Shown: positions 14,032 to 20,657 of the stretch, in pieces | How the letters are laid out: each line of letters starts with the position of its first letter | How positions within the stretch are numbered: the stretch's first letter is position 1 | DNA from: Escherichia coli | GTDB lineage: Bacteria; Pseudomonadota; Gammaproteobacteria; Enterobacterales; Enterobacteriaceae | Assembly (NCBI RefSeq): GCF_003334315.1 | Contig: NZ_QOWR01000007.1 | Strand: one strand, 5' to 3' | DNA: 64,000 nucleotides | Made by a program: the position numbers and the translations under genes | Notes under the pieces: model-generated | Told to the model about the DNA's origin: nothing | What the model saw: only the letters and a program-made list of their open reading frames with translations | Databases searched by the model: none

Positions 14032-14763
14032 ATGAGCGAAATGATTTACGGCATCCACGCAGTGCAGGCCCTGCTGGAGCGCGCCCCTGAACGTTTTCAG
14101 GAAGTCTTTATTTTAAAAGGCCGTGAAGATAAACGTCTGTTACCGCTGATTCACGCCCTTGAGTCTCAGGGCGTGGTTATCCAGTTGGCAAACCGCCAAT
14201 ATCTCGACGAGAAAAGCGACGGTGCCGTGCATCAGGGCATTATCGCCCGCGTGAAGCCAGGACGTCAGTATCAGGAAAACGATCTGCCGGATCTGATCGC
14301 TTCGCTCGATCAACCGTTCCTGCTGATCCTCGACGGCGTAACCGATCCGCACAACCTCGGCGCGTGCCTGCGTAGTGCGGACGCCGCAGGCGTTCATGCG
14401 GTGATTGTGCCGAAAGATCGCTCCGCACAGCTCAACGCTACGGCGAAAAAAGTAGCCTGCGGCGCGGCAGAAAGCGTTCCGCTGATTCGGGTGACTAACC
14501 TTGCGCGCACCATGCGTATGTTGCAGGAAGAGAATATCTGGATCGTCGGTACGGCAGGCGAGGCGGATCATACACTCTATCAGAGCAAAATGACCGGACG
14601 CCTGGCGCTGGTGATGGGTGCGGAAGGTGAAGGTATGCGTCGCCTGACTCGTGAACATTGCGATGAGTTGATCAGCATCCCGATGGCTGGAAGCGTTTCT
14701 TCCCTGAACGTTTCGGTTGCGACCGGAATTTGCTTATTTGAAGCGGTGCGCCAGCGCAGCTAA
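14032..14763 (+). CDS. rlmB: 23S rRNA (Gm2251) 2'-O-methyltransferase RlmB
   Basis: 243 aa, SpoU/TrmH methyltransferase motifs. Confidence 0.93.
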
Positions 14764-14783
14764 TTTCTCAGAATTATGAAAAG

Positions 14784-14810
14784 CCATCCAGATTTGGATG
14801 GTTTTTTTTT
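14784..14810 (+). terminator. intrinsic terminator after rlmB
   Basis: ccatcc-agattt-ggatgg stem followed by a 9-T run. Confidence 0.75.
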
Positions 14811-14889
14811 GTCTATAGCTGGTAAGATAATTACGTATTGCAAATATTCATTTTATTAATATTTAAACTTAATCTATATGGAATAATAT

Positions 14890-15291
14890 ATGACATGGAA
14901 TCCGTTGGCGCTAGCGACGGCGCTGCAAACTGTACCTGAACAAAATATTGATGTAACAAATAGCGAGAACGCATTAATTATTAAAATGAATGATTATGGC
15001 GATTTGCAAATCAATATTCTTTTTACTTCCCGCCAAATGATTATCGAAACCTTTATTTGTCCGGTGAGTAGTATCAGCAATCCAGATGAATTTAATACCT
15101 TCTTATTAAGAAATCAGAAGATGATGCCGTTGTCATCGGTAGGGATCTCCAGCGTACAACAGGAAGAGTATTACATTGTTTTCGGGGCGTTATCGCTTAA
15201 ATCTTCTCTTGAAGATATCCTGCTTGAGATAACCTCGCTGGTAGATAACTCATTGGATCTGGCTGAAATTACAGAAGAATATTCACACTAA
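14890..15291 (+). CDS. yjfI: uncharacterised protein YjfI (DUF2170)
   Basis: 133-aa ORF, AT-rich, first gene of the yjfIJKLMC cluster. Confidence 0.8.
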   Translation: MTWNPLALATALQTVPEQNIDVTNSENALIIKMNDYGDLQINILFTSRQMIIETFICPVSSISNPDEFNTFLLRNQKMMPLSSVGISSVQQEEYYIVFGALSLKSSLEDILLEITSLVDNSLDLAEITEEYSH

Positions 15292-15309
15292 TTACAAGGA
15301 CGGGTATTT

Positions 15310-16008
15310 ATGGGAATTTTAAAAAGTTTATTTACGCTGGGGAAATCGTTTATCTCCCAGGCGGAAGAATCCATTGAAGAAACCCAGGGCGTGCGCATGC
15401 TGGAACAGCATATTCGTGACGCTAAAGCTGAACTCGATAAAGCCGGAAAATCTCGCGTTGATCTGCTGGCGCGGGTGAAATTAAGTCACGATAAGCTGAA
15501 AGATTTACGTGAGCGCAAAGCCAGTCTGGAAGCCCGTGCGCTGGAAGCGTTAAGCAAGAACGTTAATCCGTCGTTGATTAACGAAGTTGCTGAAGAAATC
15601 GCGCGCCTTGAGAATCTCATTACCGCTGAAGAGCAAGTGTTGTCGAATCTGGAAGTCTCCCGTGATGGCGTGGAAAAAGCAGTTACAGCGACAGCGCAGC
15701 GTATCGCTCAGTTTGAGCAGCAAATGGAAGTCGTTAAAGCCACTGAAGCCATGCAGCGTGCACAACAGGCTGTAACAACCTCTACCGTTGGCGCATCTTC
15801 CAGCGTTTCGACAGCGGCAGAATCCTTAAAACGCCTGCAAACGCGTCAGGCCGAACGTCAGGCTCGCCTGGATGCTGCCGCACAGTTGGAGAAAGTCGCA
15901 GACGGTCGCGACCTTGACGAAAAGCTGGCGGAAGCCGGAATTGGCGGTAGCAATAAAAGTAGCGCCCAGGATGTATTAGCAAGACTGCAACGCCAACAGG
16001 GCGAGTAA
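15310..16008 (+). CDS. yjfJ: PspA/IM30-family protein YjfJ
   Basis: 232 aa, coiled-coil rich (…LEQHIRDAKAELDKAG…), PspA-like. Confidence 0.85.
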   Translation: MGILKSLFTLGKSFISQAEESIEETQGVRMLEQHIRDAKAELDKAGKSRVDLLARVKLSHDKLKDLRERKASLEARALEALSKNVNPSLINEVAEEIARLENLITAEEQVLSNLEVSRDGVEKAVTATAQRIAQFEQQMEVVKATEAMQRAQQAVTTSTVGASSSVSTAAESLKRLQTRQAERQARLDAAAQLEKVADGRDLDEKLAEAGIGGSNKSSAQDVLARLQRQQGE

Positions 16009-16058
16009 TTTTTTTGCCAGCCTCGCTAAAAGGCTGGCAACTATTTTAAGGATAAAAT

Positions 16059-16718
16059 ATGTCTGGTTTTTTCCAGCGTCTGTTTGGCAAGGATAATAAG
16101 CCAGCTATCGCTCGTGGTCCGCTGGGACTTCATCTCAATAGTGGCTTTACGCTCGACACGTTAGCGTTTCGTTTGCTGGAAGATGAATTGCTGATTGCGC
16201 TGCCGGGTGAGGAATTTACGGTAGCCGCCGTCAGCCACATCGATCTGGGCGGCGGTAGTCAGATTTTCCGCTACTACACTTCAGGCGATGAGTTTCTGCA
16301 AATCAATACCACCGGCGGCGAAGATATTGATGACATTGATGATATCAAGCTCTTTGTCTATGAAGAGAGCTACGGTATCAGTAAAGAGAGTCACTGGCGC
16401 GAGGCGATCAACGCCAAAGCGATGGGAGCAATGACCTTAAACTGGCAGGAAAAACGCTGGCAGCGATTTTTTAACAGCGAAGAACCGGGAAATATCGAAC
16501 CCGTCTACATGCTGGAAAAAGTAGAAAATCAAAACCATGCCAAATGGGAGGTCCATAATTTTACCATGGGCTACCAACGGCAAGTAACCGAAGATACTTA
16601 CGAATATTTGCTGCTAAATGGTGAGGAATCTTTTAACGATCTCGGCGAGCCAGAGTGGTTATTTTCGCGCGCGTTGGGTGTCGATATCCCGCTGACATCA
16701 CTTCATATTATTGGTTAA
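16059..16718 (+). CDS. yjfK: uncharacterised protein YjfK (DUF2491)
   Basis: 219-aa ORF in conserved cluster position. Confidence 0.8.
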   Translation: MSGFFQRLFGKDNKPAIARGPLGLHLNSGFTLDTLAFRLLEDELLIALPGEEFTVAAVSHIDLGGGSQIFRYYTSGDEFLQINTTGGEDIDDIDDIKLFVYEESYGISKESHWREAINAKAMGAMTLNWQEKRWQRFFNSEEPGNIEPVYMLEKVENQNHAKWEVHNFTMGYQRQVTEDTYEYLLLNGEESFNDLGEPEWLFSRALGVDIPLTSLHIIG

Positions 16719-16735
16719 TTACAAGGACGTTTACA

Positions 16736-17134
16736 ATGCATATACTGGATTCACTTCTTGCCTTTAGCGCCTATTTTTTTATTGGCGTGGCTATGGTGAT
16801 TATTTTTCTGTTTATCTATTCTAAAATTACACCGCACAACGAATGGCAGTTAATCAAAAACAATAATACCGCGGCGTCACTGGCGTTCAGCGGTACATTG
16901 TTGGGTTACGTTATCCCCTTATCCAGTGCGGCAATCAATGCGGTGAGTATTCCAGACTATTTCGCCTGGGGCGGGATTGCACTGGTGATTCAGTTACTCG
17001 TTTTTGCTGGTGTCAGACTTTATATGCCCGCATTAAGCGAAAAAATTATTAATCACAATACCGCAGCAGGAATGTTTATGGGAACCGCCGCGCTGGCTGG
17101 CGGTATTTTTAACGCAGCTTGTATGACATGGTAA
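16736..17134 (+). CDS. yjfL: inner-membrane protein YjfL (DUF350)
   Basis: 132 aa from internal ATG 16736 (MHILDSLLAFSAYFFIGV...), multi-TM; the longer track ORF from 16655 overlaps yjfK and was not used. Confidence 0.75.
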   Translation: MHILDSLLAFSAYFFIGVAMVIIFLFIYSKITPHNEWQLIKNNNTAASLAFSGTLLGYVIPLSSAAINAVSIPDYFAWGGIALVIQLLVFAGVRLYMPALSEKIINHNTAAGMFMGTAALAGGIFNAACMTW

Positions 17135-17143
17135 TGGACGATC

Positions 17144-17782
17144 ATGGCCAGAAAACGCAAATCAAGAAATAACAGTAAAATTGGTCACGGAGCGATTAGT
17201 CGCATTGGTAGACCGAATAATCCTTTTGAACCGCGTCGCAATCGCTACGCACAAAAATACTTAACGTTGGCGCTAATGGGCGGTGCCGCTTTTTTCGTAT
17301 TGAAAGGTTGTAGCGATAGTAGCGATGTCGATAACGACGGCGACGGAACGTTTTACGCGACAGTGCAGGATTGTATTGATGACGGTAATAATGCCGACAT
17401 TTGCGCGCGTGGCTGGAACAACGCCAAAACGGCATTTTATGCCGATGTTCCGAAGAATATGACTCAGCAGAACTGTCAGTCTAAGTACGAAAATTGCTAC
17501 TACGACAATGTTGAACAGAGTTGGATCCCGGTCGTTTCTGGATTTTTGTTAAGCCGGGTTATTCGTAAAGATCGCGATGAGCCGTTTGTTTATAACAGCG
17601 GCGGTTCCTCTTTTGCTTCGCGCCCAGTCTGGCGCAGCACTTCTGGTGATTACTCTTGGCGCTCCGGTTCTGGCAAAAAAGAGTCTTACTCTTCGGGCGG
17701 CTTTACCACCAAAAAAGCGTCTACCGTTTCTCGCGGCGGCTATGGTCGTTCTTCCAGCGCCCGTGGGCATTGGGGAGGCTAA
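17144..17782 (+). CDS. yjfM: uncharacterised protein YjfM (DUF1190)
   Basis: 212 aa, N-terminal basic region plus TM helix, Ser/Gly-rich C-terminus. Confidence 0.8.
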   Translation: MARKRKSRNNSKIGHGAISRIGRPNNPFEPRRNRYAQKYLTLALMGGAAFFVLKGCSDSSDVDNDGDGTFYATVQDCIDDGNNADICARGWNNAKTAFYADVPKNMTQQNCQSKYENCYYDNVEQSWIPVVSGFLLSRVIRKDRDEPFVYNSGGSSFASRPVWRSTSGDYSWRSGSGKKESYSSGGFTTKKASTVSRGGYGRSSSARGHWGG

Positions 17783-17784
17783 TC

Positions 17785-18948
17785 ATGCTGAGACACAACG
17801 TTCCTGTGCGACGGGATCTGGACCAGATCGCCGCTGACAACGGTTTCGACTTTCATATCATCGACAATGAAATCTATTGGGATGAGAGTCGGGCTTACCG
17901 TTTTACTCTGCGCCAGATTGAAGAGCAGATCGAAAAACCGACTGCGGAACTGCATCAGATGTGCCTTGAGGTGGTGGATCGCGCGGTAAAAGATGAAGAG
18001 ATCCTGACGCAACTGGCGATCCCGCCGTTGTACTGGGATGTGATCGCTGAAAGCTGGCGCGCCCGCGATCCTTCGCTGTATGGACGGATGGATTTTGCCT
18101 GGTGTGGCAATGCGCCGGTGAAGCTGCTGGAGTACAACGCCGATACGCCAACTTCATTGTACGAGTCGGCTTATTTCCAGTGGCTGTGGCTGGAGGATGC
18201 CCGGCGCAGCGGCATTATTCCGCGTGATGCCGATCAGTACAATGCTATTCAGGAACGCCTGATTTCACGCTTTAGCGAGCTTTACAGTCGGGAACCGTTT
18301 TATTTTTGCTGCTGTCAGGACACCGATGAAGACAGGAGTACCGTGCTGTACTTGCAGGACTGCGCCCAGCAGGCAGGGCAGGAGTCGCGGTTTATCTACA
18401 TTGAAGATCTCGGTTTGGGCGTCGGCGGCGTACTGACCGATCTTGATGATAATGTCATCCAGCGTGCATTTAAGCTGTATCCGCTGGAGTGGATGATGCG
18501 TGACGATAACGGTCCGCTGCTGCGCAAGCGTCGCGAGCAATGGGTGGAGCCGTTATGGAAAAGTATCTTGAGTAATAAAGGGCTAATGCCGCTGCTTTGG
18601 CGCTTCTTCCCTGGTCATCCTAACCTTCTTGCATCCTGGTTTGAGGGTGAAAAATCGCAGATTGCCGCTGGCGAAAGCTATGTGCGTAAACCGCTCTACT
18701 CGCGCGAAGGCGGAAATGTCACCATTTTCGACGGCCAGAATAACGTCGTTGACCACGCTGATGGTGATTACGCCGATGAACCGATGATCTACCAGGCGTT
18801 TCAACCTCTGCCGCGGTTTGGCGATAGCTACACACTCATCGGTAGCTGGATTGTCGATGATGAAGCGTGCGGAATGGGGATCCGTGAAGATAACACACTG
18901 ATCACCAAAGACACCTCACGTTTCGTTCCGCATTACATTGCTGGATAA
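17785..18948 (+). CDS. yjfC: glutathionylspermidine-synthase-like ATP-grasp protein YjfC
   Basis: 387 aa from ATG 17785 (GGGGAGG Shine-Dalgarno); starts 3 bp after the yjfM stop. Confidence 0.85.
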   Translation: MLRHNVPVRRDLDQIAADNGFDFHIIDNEIYWDESRAYRFTLRQIEEQIEKPTAELHQMCLEVVDRAVKDEEILTQLAIPPLYWDVIAESWRARDPSLYGRMDFAWCGNAPVKLLEYNADTPTSLYESAYFQWLWLEDARRSGIIPRDADQYNAIQERLISRFSELYSREPFYFCCCQDTDEDRSTVLYLQDCAQQAGQESRFIYIEDLGLGVGGVLTDLDDNVIQRAFKLYPLEWMMRDDNGPLLRKRREQWVEPLWKSILSNKGLMPLLWRFFPGHPNLLASWFEGEKSQIAAGESYVRKPLYSREGGNVTIFDGQNNVVDHADGDYADEPMIYQAFQPLPRFGDSYTLIGSWIVDDEACGMGIREDNTLITKDTSRFVPHYIAG

Positions 18949-18982
18949 GAATGTTTTAGCAATCTCTTTCTGTCATGAATCC

Positions 18983-19014
18983 ATGGCAGTGACCATACTA
19001 ATGGTGACTGCCAT
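18983..19014. promoter_or_regulatory. 14-bp imperfect inverted repeat immediately upstream of the aidB start
   Basis: atggcagtgaccat-acta-atggtgactgccat (one mismatch between arms). Confidence 0.3.
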
Positions 19015-19031
19015 TGATGGAGGGAGACACA

Positions 19032-20657
19032 GTGCACTGGCAAACTCACACCGTTTTTAATCAACCTATACCATTAAATAACAGCAACTTATACCTGTCT
19101 GATGGCGCGCTCTGCGAAGCGGTAACGCGTGAAGGTGCTGGCTGGGATAGCGATTTTCTAGCCAGTATTGGTCAGCAGTTAGGAACGGCTGAATCCCTTG
19201 AACTGGGGCGGCTGGCGAATGTGAATCCGCCTGAATTATTGCGCTACGATGCGCAAGGACGCCGTCTGGACGATGTGCGTTTTCACCCCGCCTGGCACCT
19301 GCTGATGCAGGCGCTATGTACCAATCGGGTGCACAATCTTGCCTGGGAAGAAGACGCTCGCTCCGGCGCATTTGTGGCGCGCGCGGCGCGTTTTATGTTA
19401 CATGCGCAGGTTGAGGCAGGGTCGTTATGTCCGATAACCATGACCTTTGCCGCCACGCCATTGTTGTTACAGATGTTACCCGCGCCGTTTCAGGACTGGA
19501 CCACGCCGCTATTGAGCGATCGCTACGATTCTCACTTATTGTCAGGTGGGCAAAAACGCGGTTTGTTGATTGGCATGGGAATGACGGAAAAGCAGGGCGG
19601 TTCCGATGTTATGAGCAACACCACCCGTGCAGAGCGTCTGGAAGATGGCTCTTATCGGCTGGTGGGGCATAAATGGTTTTTCTCGGTTCCGCAAAGCGAT
19701 GCGCATCTGGTGCTGGCGCAGACCGCGGGTGGCCTGTCCTGCTTTTTTGTGCCGCGCTTTTTGCCTGACGGGCAACGCAACGCGATTCGCCTCGAGCGGC
19801 TGAAAGATAAGCTGGGTAATCGCTCTAACGCCAGTTGCGAAGTGGAGTTTCAGGATGCCATTGGTTGGTTGTTGGGGCAGGAAGGGGAAGGAATTCGTCT
19901 GATCCTGAAAATGGGTGGGATGACGCGTTTTGATTGCGCCCTGGGTAGCCATGCCATGATGCGCCGTGCATTTTCGCTGGCGATTTATCATGCACATCAA
20001 CGCCATGTTTTTGGTAATCCATTGATCCAACAGCCCCTTATGCGTCATGTCTTAAGTCGCATGGCACTTCAGCTTGAAGGGCAAACGGCGTTGCTGTTTC
20101 GTCTTGCGCGAGCGTGGGACCGGCGTGCCGATGCCAAAGAAGCCCTGTGGGCGCGTTTATTTACGCCTGCGGCAAAATTTGTGATCTGCAAAAGAGGTAT
20201 GCCGTTTGTGGCCGAAGCGATGGAGGTGCTGGGCGGCATTGGTTATTGCGAGGAGAGCGAGCTGCCGCGGCTTTACCGGGAGATGCCGGTAAACAGTATT
20301 TGGGAAGGTTCCGGCAATATTATGTGCCTGGATGTGTTGCGCGTTCTCAATAAGCAAGCGGGCGTATACGACTTATTGTCGGAAGCATTTGTGGAAGTGA
20401 AAGGGCAGGATCGCTATTTTGATCGCGCGGTTCGTCGTTTACAGCAGCAGCTGCGTAAGCCAGCTGAAGAACTGGGGCGAGAGATTACTCATCAGCTATT
20501 CCTGCTGGGCTGCGGTGCGCAAATGTTGAAATATGCTTCTCCGCCAATGGCGCAGGCGTGGTGTCAGGTGATGTTAGATACGCGCGGCGGCGTACGGTTG
20601 TCAGAGCAGATCCAGAATGATTTATTGCTGCGGGCGACGGGGGGAGTGTGTGTGTAA
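19032..20657 (+). CDS. aidB: isovaleryl-CoA-dehydrogenase-like adaptive-response protein AidB
   Basis: 541 aa from GTG 19032 (VHWQTHTVFNQP...), acyl-CoA dehydrogenase fold. Confidence 0.92.
   Translation: MHWQTHTVFNQPIPLNNSNLYLSDGALCEAVTREGAGWDSDFLASIGQQLGTAESLELGRLANVNPPELLRYDAQGRRLDDVRFHPAWHLLMQALCTNRVHNLAWEEDARSGAFVARAARFMLHAQVEAGSLCPITMTFAATPLLLQMLPAPFQDWTTPLLSDRYDSHLLSGGQKRGLLIGMGMTEKQGGSDVMSNTTRAERLEDGSYRLVGHKWFFSVPQSDAHLVLAQTAGGLSCFFVPRFLPDGQRNAIRLERLKDKLGNRSNASCEVEFQDAIGWLLGQEGEGIRLILKMGGMTRFDCALGSHAMMRRAFSLAIYHAHQRHVFGNPLIQQPLMRHVLSRMALQLEGQTALLFRLARAWDRRADAKEALWARLFTPAAKFVICKRGMPFVAEAMEVLGGIGYCEESELPRLYREMPVNSIWEGSGNIMCLDVLRVLNKQAGVYDLLSEAFVEVKGQDRYFDRAVRRLQQQLRKPAEELGREITHQLFLLGCGAQMLKYASPPMAQAWCQVMLDTRGGVRLSEQIQNDLLLRATGGVCV

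Follow-up and report, generated by a model that had tools for sequence, protein, structure and literature searches.

Why does Escherichia coli keep, in one short block, a membrane-stress protein of the PspA type and an enzyme that joins peptides to a polyamine? The block in question, yjfIJKLMC, lies at positions 14890-18948 of a 64,000-nt stretch of contig NZ_QOWR01000007.1 (E. coli assembly GCF_003334315.1), referred to here as the window. Six plus-strand open reading frames (ORFs), yjfI, yjfJ, yjfK, yjfL, yjfM and yjfC, lie 3′ of the rlmB terminator with gaps of 18, 50, 17, 9 and 2 nt in this order; they are 100% identical to yjfI-yjfC of an annotated E. coli chromosome, where they sit between rnr-rlmB and aidB, and K-12 MG1655 has the identical gene order. 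The cluster is one of the remaining conserved blocks of E. coli K-12 with an unsettled cellular role, and it holds the second ESCRT-III-type protein of E. coli together with an enzyme whose in vitro chemistry is known and whose natural substrate is not.

The K-12-type cluster is a reduced form of an older seven-gene system, from which the gene for a K+ channel has been lost. The balance of the evidence tilts slightly towards reading the block as a channel-less, six-gene derivative of a proteobacterial inner-membrane system that couples envelope state, polyamine conjugation and membrane repair of the PspA type. The domain make-up, the association of PspA with a ligase, the in vitro activity of the ligase and the link to heat tolerance were already known; added here are a core made of the last three genes, the loss of the channel, the site of a heat-adaptive mutation in a terminator U-tract and a pattern in the tails of the DUF1190 proteins.

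A first-pass annotation, made from the window alone, had described six co-directional genes with short gaps behind the rlmB terminator and had given each a domain family. This layout is borne out by the ORFs, the RefSeq starts and gaps of 2-50 nt, and precomputed Pfam matches of the six proteins return the same families (DUF2170, PspA_IM30, DUF2491, DUF350, DUF1190 and GSP_synth). The same annotation called the function poorly defined, which holds for the cluster as a whole and no longer for YjfC, for which an in vitro activity and structures (7UK6/7UK7) are available. Its view of the PspA paralogue and the amide ligase as one envelope stress or modification system fits both our linkage survey and published work (PMC11237479, PMC12492005, PMC11472167 and PMC11762307), and is not new. 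It had also named a published function for the whole cluster as grounds for giving up that view; an activity has been assigned to YjfC, and the operon class has been published.

Loss of a seventh gene

In Salmonella, Enterobacter and a distant enterobacterial contig, yjfJ and yjfK are separated by a gene for a 356-aa K+ channel (PF07885), which overlaps with each of them; in our set of loci the channel gene is found in L005 (3070-4140), L088 (3849-4919), L089 and L090, the last being the distant contig. Wherever it is present, yjfK follows it directly, and a channel homologue is encoded directly upstream of the yjfK-family gene in five alphaproteobacterial loci as well. Of the 5426 complete E. 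coli genomes, just 19 have kept the channel gene. In the window it is absent, and a 50-nt spacer with a hairpin (16009-16058) stands in its place. Klebsiella is also channel-less, with a 53-nt spacer of unrelated sequence; since the two spacers are unrelated, the losses in E. coli and Klebsiella look independent. The six-gene view of the first-pass annotation thus overlooked an ancestral seventh gene.

Reduction has gone further elsewhere. In Citrobacter sp. R56 (L006, 8640-8800) rlmB and its terminator are followed, at the same rlmB/aidB slot, by a truncated 5′ piece of yjfI and then by yjfLMC; this remnant implies that the three-gene form in this strain arose by deletion of the rest of yjfI through yjfK. 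Laboratory E. coli accordingly carries a channel-less remnant, and the system may be better studied in Salmonella or in the 19 E. coli strains with all seven genes. The channel gene came to light in a separate, direct search; clustering of all neighbouring ORFs in search of further partners returned only lineage-specific synteny and spurious ORFs of high GC content.

Gene neighbourhoods of the ligase

How the remaining genes belong together was addressed by a survey of YjfC relatives (3001 clusters at 50% identity, E<=1e-3), of which 38 were aligned, and for which 80 genomic loci were taken, mostly from Alphaproteobacteria and some from Gammaproteobacteria; the six E. coli proteins, abbreviated here as I, J, K, L, M and C, were the seeds of the iterated profiles by which neighbouring genes were labelled. 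Among the 80 loci, L occurs in 59, M in 53, I and J in 21 each and K in 20; in about 20 others, from Bradyrhizobium, the place between L and C is taken by a short, divergent ORF that is M-like. The gene orders include IJKLMC (Escherichia), the partly divergent ji<>KLMC (3 loci), IJC-KLM (1), LMC (15) and MC (10), together with a divergent arrangement, mlk<>IJC, in 13 loci from Sphingomonas, Caulobacter, Brevundimonas, Phenylobacterium and Pseudovibrio. The core set is L-M-C, or M-C, and I, J and K are gained and lost together.

Despite this shuffling of order and strand, the linkage of the six families is kept in Alpha- and Gammaproteobacteria, and where I, J and K are present the ligase gene stays beside M or inside the I-J operon, which argues for functional coupling and not chance adjacency. 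Co-occurrence had been put forward as a check by the first-pass annotation; the linkage is there, and the occurrence of L-M-C by itself elsewhere is a point that it missed. In most of the 80 loci L-M-C or M-C stands alone, so the ligase module can do without the PspA module, and in Citrobacter sp. R56 it does so at the very same chromosomal site. These loci favour a different reading, possible if on the unlikely side, in which two independent neighbours share the locus: a PspA-type stress module (yjfIJ, perhaps with yjfK) and a polyamine-conjugation module (yjfLMC). The paralogous ygiBC pair, which sits with tolC and has no PspA gene nearby, and the P. aeruginosa bacAB genes, a DUF2170-PspA pair without a ligase, point the same way. 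Two independent modules are, however, hard to square with the fact that I, J and K, when present in the surveyed loci, are never more than a few kb away from L, M and C, and with the 13 alphaproteobacterial loci in which the ligase gene has joined the I-J operon (IJC) and the transcription of K, L and M is divergent; the IJC order implies that selection keeps C with I-J as well as with M.

The ligase and a candidate protein partner

YjfC (387 aa) is identical to the protein in PDB entry 7UK6 (E=4e-273), one of its two solved structures (7UK6/7UK7), and matches YgiC (E=6e-129; structures 7UK8/7UKA), trypanothione synthetase (E=1e-37) and GspSA (E=2e-32; PF03738). The N-terminal amidase domain is missing from YjfC, and GspSA is matched only at residues 253-444 and 487-613 of its 619 aa. 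In RefSeq, YjfC and YgiC both bear the product name 'peptide--spermidine ligase'. YjfC reportedly lacks glutathionylspermidine synthetase activity, judging by the title of a report on both homologues (Sui 2012). A 2025 review describes YgiC as devoid of that activity and as joining peptides to spermidine, with a physiological substrate that is unknown, and peptide-spermidine ligase activity in vitro is attributed to YgiC and YjfC alike (Pederick 2023, as cited in PMC11762307).

A candidate for the substrate is encoded immediately upstream. YjfM starts with a basic N-terminus and a signal/anchor segment ending in Cys, continues with an acidic Cys-rich segment and a hydrophobic stretch, SWIPVVSGFLLSRVI, and closes with a basic tail ending in STVSRGGYGRSSSARGHWGG. 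The same order recurs throughout DUF1190: a basic N-terminus is followed by a signal/anchor segment, usually with a lipobox-like Cys at its end, by a segment of about 75 residues with 4-5 Cys, by a hydrophobic segment with the consensus F-x-P-L-L-A-G-Y-M-M-G, and by a tail of about 77 residues that contains a near-universal [ST]RGGFG motif. The 44 long DUF1190 homologues without exception carry a net negative charge in the Cys-rich segment (median -7) and a net positive one in the tail (median +8); this is an inside-positive pattern, which fits a second hydrophobic segment that spans the membrane and a tail in the cytoplasm.

The tails themselves, compared over 74 distinct M-C pairs, have a conspicuous end. 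Sixty of them finish in Gly-Gly, against about 6% expected from tail composition, and 71 contain an RGGFG-type motif. Asp or Glu occurs past the motif in only 2 of 72 tails, so that the C-terminal carboxylate is nearly always the sole carboxyl group there. Glutathione, the substrate of GspS, likewise presents a C-terminal Gly carboxylate. For docking, the 30 C-terminal residues of YjfM were attached to YjfC through a (G4S)6 linker, and the fusion was modelled with AlphaFold2 from a paired alignment of 28 such fusions. The pLDDT is 33-36 in the linker and rises to 65-73 in tail residues 422-438 (FTTKKASTVSRGGYGRS), where TVSR is modelled as a beta strand. The model suggests, with moderate confidence, that the tail motif docks on YjfC, and the data as a whole suggest that YjfM is a partner or substrate of the ligase. 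In E. coli K-12 the paralogous pair downstream of tolC, ygiB-ygiC (L085, 3745-5582), repeats the arrangement, and YgiB has TRGGFG and ends in SMGG; a substrate relation between YjfM and YjfC, if found, should hold for YgiB and YgiC, and the tails of YjfM and YgiB are specific substrate candidates. A word-indexed homologue search with YjfM reached only Enterobacteriaceae.

A more specific version can be formulated, which we regard as speculative and, taken as a whole, rather improbable: DUF1190 proteins (YjfM and YgiB) would be bitopic proteins of the inner membrane rather than plain periplasmic lipoproteins, their basic cytoplasmic tail would be what the two ligases act on in the cell, YjfC and YgiC would dock on RGGFG and amidate the C-terminus, usually Gly-Gly, with spermidine, this would report or tune the state of the envelope, and in the yjf cluster it would feed repair of the PspA/ESCRT-III type. 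A simpler use of the enzyme has also been proposed. In what is essentially the proposal of Ravi et al. 2024, the locus would monitor or adjust polyamine and cation balance at the membrane, YjfC making a small, soluble peptide-spermidine conjugate comparable to glutathionylspermidine, the channel, YjfK and YjfL handling ion or solute flux, and YjfM being a periplasmic lipoprotein and no substrate. The association of the channel gene with K, the action of YjfC on free peptides in vitro known from the literature, related operon variants that carry genes for AdoMet decarboxylase and polyamine oxidase (Ravi et al. 2024, PMC11237479), and an extreme C-terminus of the tail that AlphaFold2 does not place confidently all agree with it. 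We see it as a tentative alternative with less in its favour than against it, since it leaves unexplained why a DUF1190 gene lies directly upstream of the ligase gene in most surveyed loci, why the RGGFG motif is near-universal and followed by a GG end, and why the tail charge is inside-positive.

The DUF2170-PspA pair and the proteins YjfK and YjfL

YjfI matches BacA of P. aeruginosa (PDB 8Q8O) over residues 3-128 (E=2e-16), and from its sequence it is predicted to have the CesT/Tir-like chaperone fold that has been assigned to DUF2170 (Ravi et al. 2024, PMC11237479; BacA work). Against the BacA model of NCBIfam (NF050185) it gives a partial match of 93.3 bits, compared with a cut-off of 300; going by these scores, it is a relative of BacA and not an orthologue. 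YjfI has no signal peptide and no hydrophobic segment, and its homologue is a soluble dimer in the crystal; the published guess that YjfI is a periplasmic lipoprotein is unlikely for these reasons. For the pseudomonad pair, a 2026 study gives an AlphaFold2 interaction probability of 0.981 for BacA and BacB (DUF2170 and PspA, respectively), and deletion of bacA raises the level of BacB. By analogy, YjfI is a probable binding partner or regulator of YjfJ.

YjfJ itself covers the entire PspA_IM30 model (PF04012, positions 1-220 of 220; residues 2-232, E=5.9e-58). Its N-terminal helix, GILKSLFTLGKSFISQAE, is amphipathic at the sequence level, with a hydrophobic moment of 0.45 and a mean hydrophobicity of 0.26. 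A homology-modelled 48-mer of YjfJ has been published (Rychel et al. 2025); sequence searches of the PDB with YjfJ and with YjfK were empty.

YjfK is predicted to be a soluble all-beta protein (AlphaFold2 pLDDT 90.8) and has no signal peptide; R71, Y73, Q81, R136, E153, M170, R174 and G207 are invariant, and no structural relatives outside DUF2491 were found. It has been described as an outer-membrane beta-barrel porin (PMC12492005); examined for the signal peptide and the barrel similarity that this would entail, YjfK showed neither, and the assignment was rejected. YjfL is a small polytopic inner-membrane protein with hydrophobic segments at residues 7-25, 49-72 and 75-93.

Transcription and adaptation to heat

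The transcription unit annotated in the literature is nsrR-rnr-rlmB-yjfIJ, and the block is nearly silent across about a thousand transcriptomes (Rychel et al. 2025). In the same work a co-regulated transcriptome module, yjfIJKL, which does not include yjfM and yjfC, is strongly up in all E. coli strains evolved at 45 °C. Activation of this module from a plasmid is reported to make growth at 42 °C 1.21-fold faster, and papers on its role in heat tolerance appeared in 2024-25 (PMC12492005, PMC11472167).

What switches the block on? The supplement of the heat-evolution paper (Rychel et al. 2025) lists its heat-adaptive 'promoter' mutation as '(T)9->8 intergenic (+47/-80) rlmB/yjfI'. Counted from the yjfI ATG, -80 is position 14810, the T with which the U-tract of the rlmB terminator (14802-14810) ends. 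Given this position and the annotated nsrR-rnr-rlmB-yjfIJ unit, read-through of the terminator rather than a new promoter is plausible: the T9->T8 deletion plausibly raises read-through from rnr-rlmB, which would be the likely explanation for how a one-base deletion turns on the block. A convincing promoter created or improved by the deletion was sought and none was identified. One U fewer should weaken termination only modestly, which tempers this reading. A published sigma-70 SELEX site, TTAATA-17-TGGAAT, lies in the rlmB-yjfI spacer and maps to 14856-14861 and 14879-14884; a sigma-70 scan of our own returned no more sites than shuffled sequence does, and the sigma-54 motif GG-N10-GC is absent from both strands of 14701-14900.

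Downstream of yjfJ, in the spacer that replaces the channel gene, a terminator-like hairpin (16014-16040; dG -17.1, z -3.0), unique in the window, is followed by CTATTTTAA. An annotated unit that ends at yjfJ, this hairpin right behind it and a co-regulated module without yjfM and yjfC are what one would expect of two independent neighbours; they also supply, in part, the evidence against co-transcription that the first-pass annotation had said would refute its view. Yet the induced module includes yjfK and yjfL, so transcription crosses the yjfJ-yjfK hairpin, a point that two separate modules do not account for. An intragenic terminator near the 3′ end of yjfL (17084-17104) was considered as the cause of the module boundary and discarded, as its folding is unremarkable against shuffled sequence (z -0.5) and it is not kept in Klebsiella.

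Features, composition and conservation of the locus

The features of the block and its borders are listed below. The starts of yjfL and yjfC (16736 and 17785) are those of RefSeq, the ORF lister having begun both genes too early. The long stem-loop in front of aidB may be a 3′ stabilizer or part of the control of aidB, and its membership in the system is not established. An Rfam scan of 14600-19100 gave nothing at E<=1. The junctions yjfI-yjfJ (15289-15312) and yjfK-yjfL (16716-16738) share a 14-mer, TAATTACAAGGACG, which was considered as a regulatory repeat and rejected; it is absent in Klebsiella, Salmonella and Enterobacter, and this E. coli-specific sequence is probably due to chance or to a convergent ribosome-binding region.

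Features of the yjfIJKLMC block and its borders, by position in the window
Feature	Position	Strand	Remarks
rlmB intrinsic terminator, hairpin and T9 (14802-14810)	14778..14810	+	dG -18 kcal/mol, z -5.4
AT-rich region upstream of yjfI	14811..14889	+	within the rlmB-yjfI spacer, 14764-14889
yjfI, DUF2170	14890..15291	+	PF09938
yjfJ, PspA/IM30	15310..16008	+	PF04012
yjfJ-yjfK spacer with hairpin 16014-16040	16009..16058	+	by folding; place of the channel gene elsewhere
yjfK, DUF2491	16059..16718	+	Pfam
yjfL, DUF350	16736..17134	+	PF03994
yjfM, DUF1190	17144..17782	+	Pfam
YjfM tail peptide			candidate YjfC substrate, TVSRGGYGRSSSARGHWGG
yjfC, ATP-grasp peptide--spermidine ligase	17785..18948	+	2 nt separate its start from the yjfM stop
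Long stem-loop between yjfC and aidB, close upstream of aidB	18963..19027	+	dG -35.3, z -5.1; no T-tract

The block had been described as visibly more AT-rich than its neighbours. Its GC content is 48.4%, compared with 51.9% for the window as a whole, and 4.5% of stretches of the same size have a lower value. The description is apt for the rlmB-yjfI spacer (23.8%), yjfI (38.3%) and yjfL (43.6%), and does not extend to yjfJ (51.4%) and yjfC (53.0%), where the composition is ordinary; yjfK and yjfM have 47.4% and 48.8%, respectively. The AT-rich 5′ end of the cluster is unusually diverse: two E. coli lineages (L005, 1958-2353, and the window, 14890-15291) share only 79% identity in YjfI, against 100% in the adjacent RlmB and 98% in YjfL.

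The locus is found in all 5426 complete E. coli genomes, 5327 of which cover at least 80% of the block in one piece. About 100 of the genomes have no intact cluster, which makes the cluster dispensable; in some strains IS1 sits inside yjfK (L004, 3850-4547), and in strain SCPM-O-B-7615 no more than 15% of the block is matched.

An upstream spacer and a yjfI of low GC content, a YjfI that differs between two E. coli lineages with identical RlmB, near-silence in the transcriptomes, and IS1 insertions and deletions in some strains might be expected of a horizontally acquired island silenced by a protein of the H-NS type, or of an anti-phage defence locus, with no housekeeping role. We consider such an origin very improbable, because the same rnr-rlmB/aidB slot is occupied in Escherichia, Salmonella and Klebsiella, with Enterobacter sharing the rnr-rlmB side and Citrobacter carrying the reduced yjfLMC form in that slot, because the locus is present in every one of the E. 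coli genomes searched, and because no mobility genes flank it. PADLOC gave no meaningful match either: five of the proteins had none, and YjfJ had only weak coiled-coil matches (E about 1e-3).

A working model and the points against it

In the favoured reading, that of a channel-less derivative of a seven-gene inner-membrane system, YjfI would be a cytoplasmic CesT-like protein that binds YjfJ and restrains or chaperones it, and YjfJ, of the PspA/ESCRT-III type, would coat and stabilize the stressed inner membrane by means of its N-terminal amphipathic helix. The K+ channel and YjfK would have formed a unit of which only YjfK, a putative soluble beta protein with a conserved Arg/Glu-rich site, is left here. 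YjfL would be the small polytopic component, and YjfM a bitopic protein or lipoprotein whose acidic, Cys-rich domain faces the periplasm and whose basic tail lies in the cytoplasm. YjfC, the cytoplasmic ATP-grasp enzyme, would amidate a peptide carboxylate with spermidine; the tail of YjfM may dock on it via RGGFG, as the likely substrate or as a membrane anchor. Envelope state, polyamine conjugation and PspA-type membrane repair could thereby be coupled. In standard E. coli the block is almost silent; transcripts would reach it past the rlmB terminator and also start at a weak AT-rich promoter, and higher expression is reported to benefit growth at 42-45 °C.

It is important to set out what weighs against this model. 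Besides the many loci in which L-M-C or M-C stands alone, the hairpin behind yjfJ and the exclusion of yjfM and yjfC from the co-regulated module, no experiment links YjfJ to YjfC, YjfM or YjfK. As regards YjfJ, a BLASTP comparison with E. coli PspA, using an approximate PspA query, gave no significant match, and the protein is reported to form none of the large rings typical of PspA. As regards the docking of YjfM, 14 of the 74 tails have no GG end, the last nine tail residues of the fusion model, including the terminal GG, have a pLDDT below 50, and the run included no scrambled control and no coordinates. The short M-like proteins of Bradyrhizobium have no second hydrophobic segment, which would make their tails periplasmic, and DUF1190 has been read by others as a metal-chelating (Ravi et al. 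2024, PMC11237479) or an outer-membrane lipoprotein.

Comparison with known systems

The psp system of E. coli (pspF, pspABCDE, pspG) is the obvious point of reference. Both systems have an effector of the PspA/IM30 family with an amphipathic N-terminal helix, a small predicted partner protein and a link to heat and membrane stress. Unlike psp, the yjf cluster has no PspF, PspB or PspC by Pfam and no sigma-54 motif upstream; its partner protein is a CesT-like DUF2170 protein, a ligase and proteins of the DUF350, DUF1190 and DUF2491 families are linked to it, and YjfJ is the most distant member of the PspA family, reportedly ring-less.

A closer match for the first two genes is the bac cluster of P. 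aeruginosa (PA3732-PA3729), in which a DUF2170 gene likewise lies directly upstream of a gene of the PspA family, and BacA behaves as a negative regulator or partner of BacB. It differs in having four genes, none of which is reported to be homologous to spermidine synthase (PA3730 and PA3729 being known by description only), and a putative sigma-54 site is reported upstream of bacA, whereas none is found upstream of yjfI. The last two genes have their counterpart in tolC-ygiB-ygiC, a paralogous pair of DUF1190 protein and peptide-spermidine ligase; this locus has no PspA, DUF2170, DUF2491 or DUF350 gene, and is co-transcribed with the gene for the TolC outer-membrane channel.

With GspSA and trypanothione synthetase, YjfC shares the ATP-grasp synthetase fold and the chemistry, in which spermidine is joined to a C-terminal Gly carboxylate by an amide bond; GspSA differs in its N-terminal amidase domain and its size (619 aa versus 387 aa in YjfC). 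RimK, which acts on ribosomal protein S6, and tubulin tyrosine ligase are ATP-grasp enzymes too, each modifying the C-terminus of a single dedicated protein, often encoded next door. Their ATP-grasp subfamily is a different one, and what they add is amino acids instead of a polyamine; they provide an analogy only for the predicted relation of YjfC to YjfM.

The system as a whole corresponds to the 'third group' of Ravi et al. 2024 (mSystems, PMC11237479), which is defined by a DUF2170-PspA pair, a GspS-related ATP-grasp ligase, a K+ channel and DUF350, DUF1190 and DUF2491 proteins, and for which a PspA-based system that monitors polyamines was proposed. Ravi et al. 2024 take DUF1190 for a metal-chelating lipoprotein and consider DUF2491 an enzyme; our analysis points to a topology signature and a putative docking tail in the former, and found no fold relative of the latter. 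The cluster in the window belongs to this group, of which, having no K+ channel, it is a reduced member.

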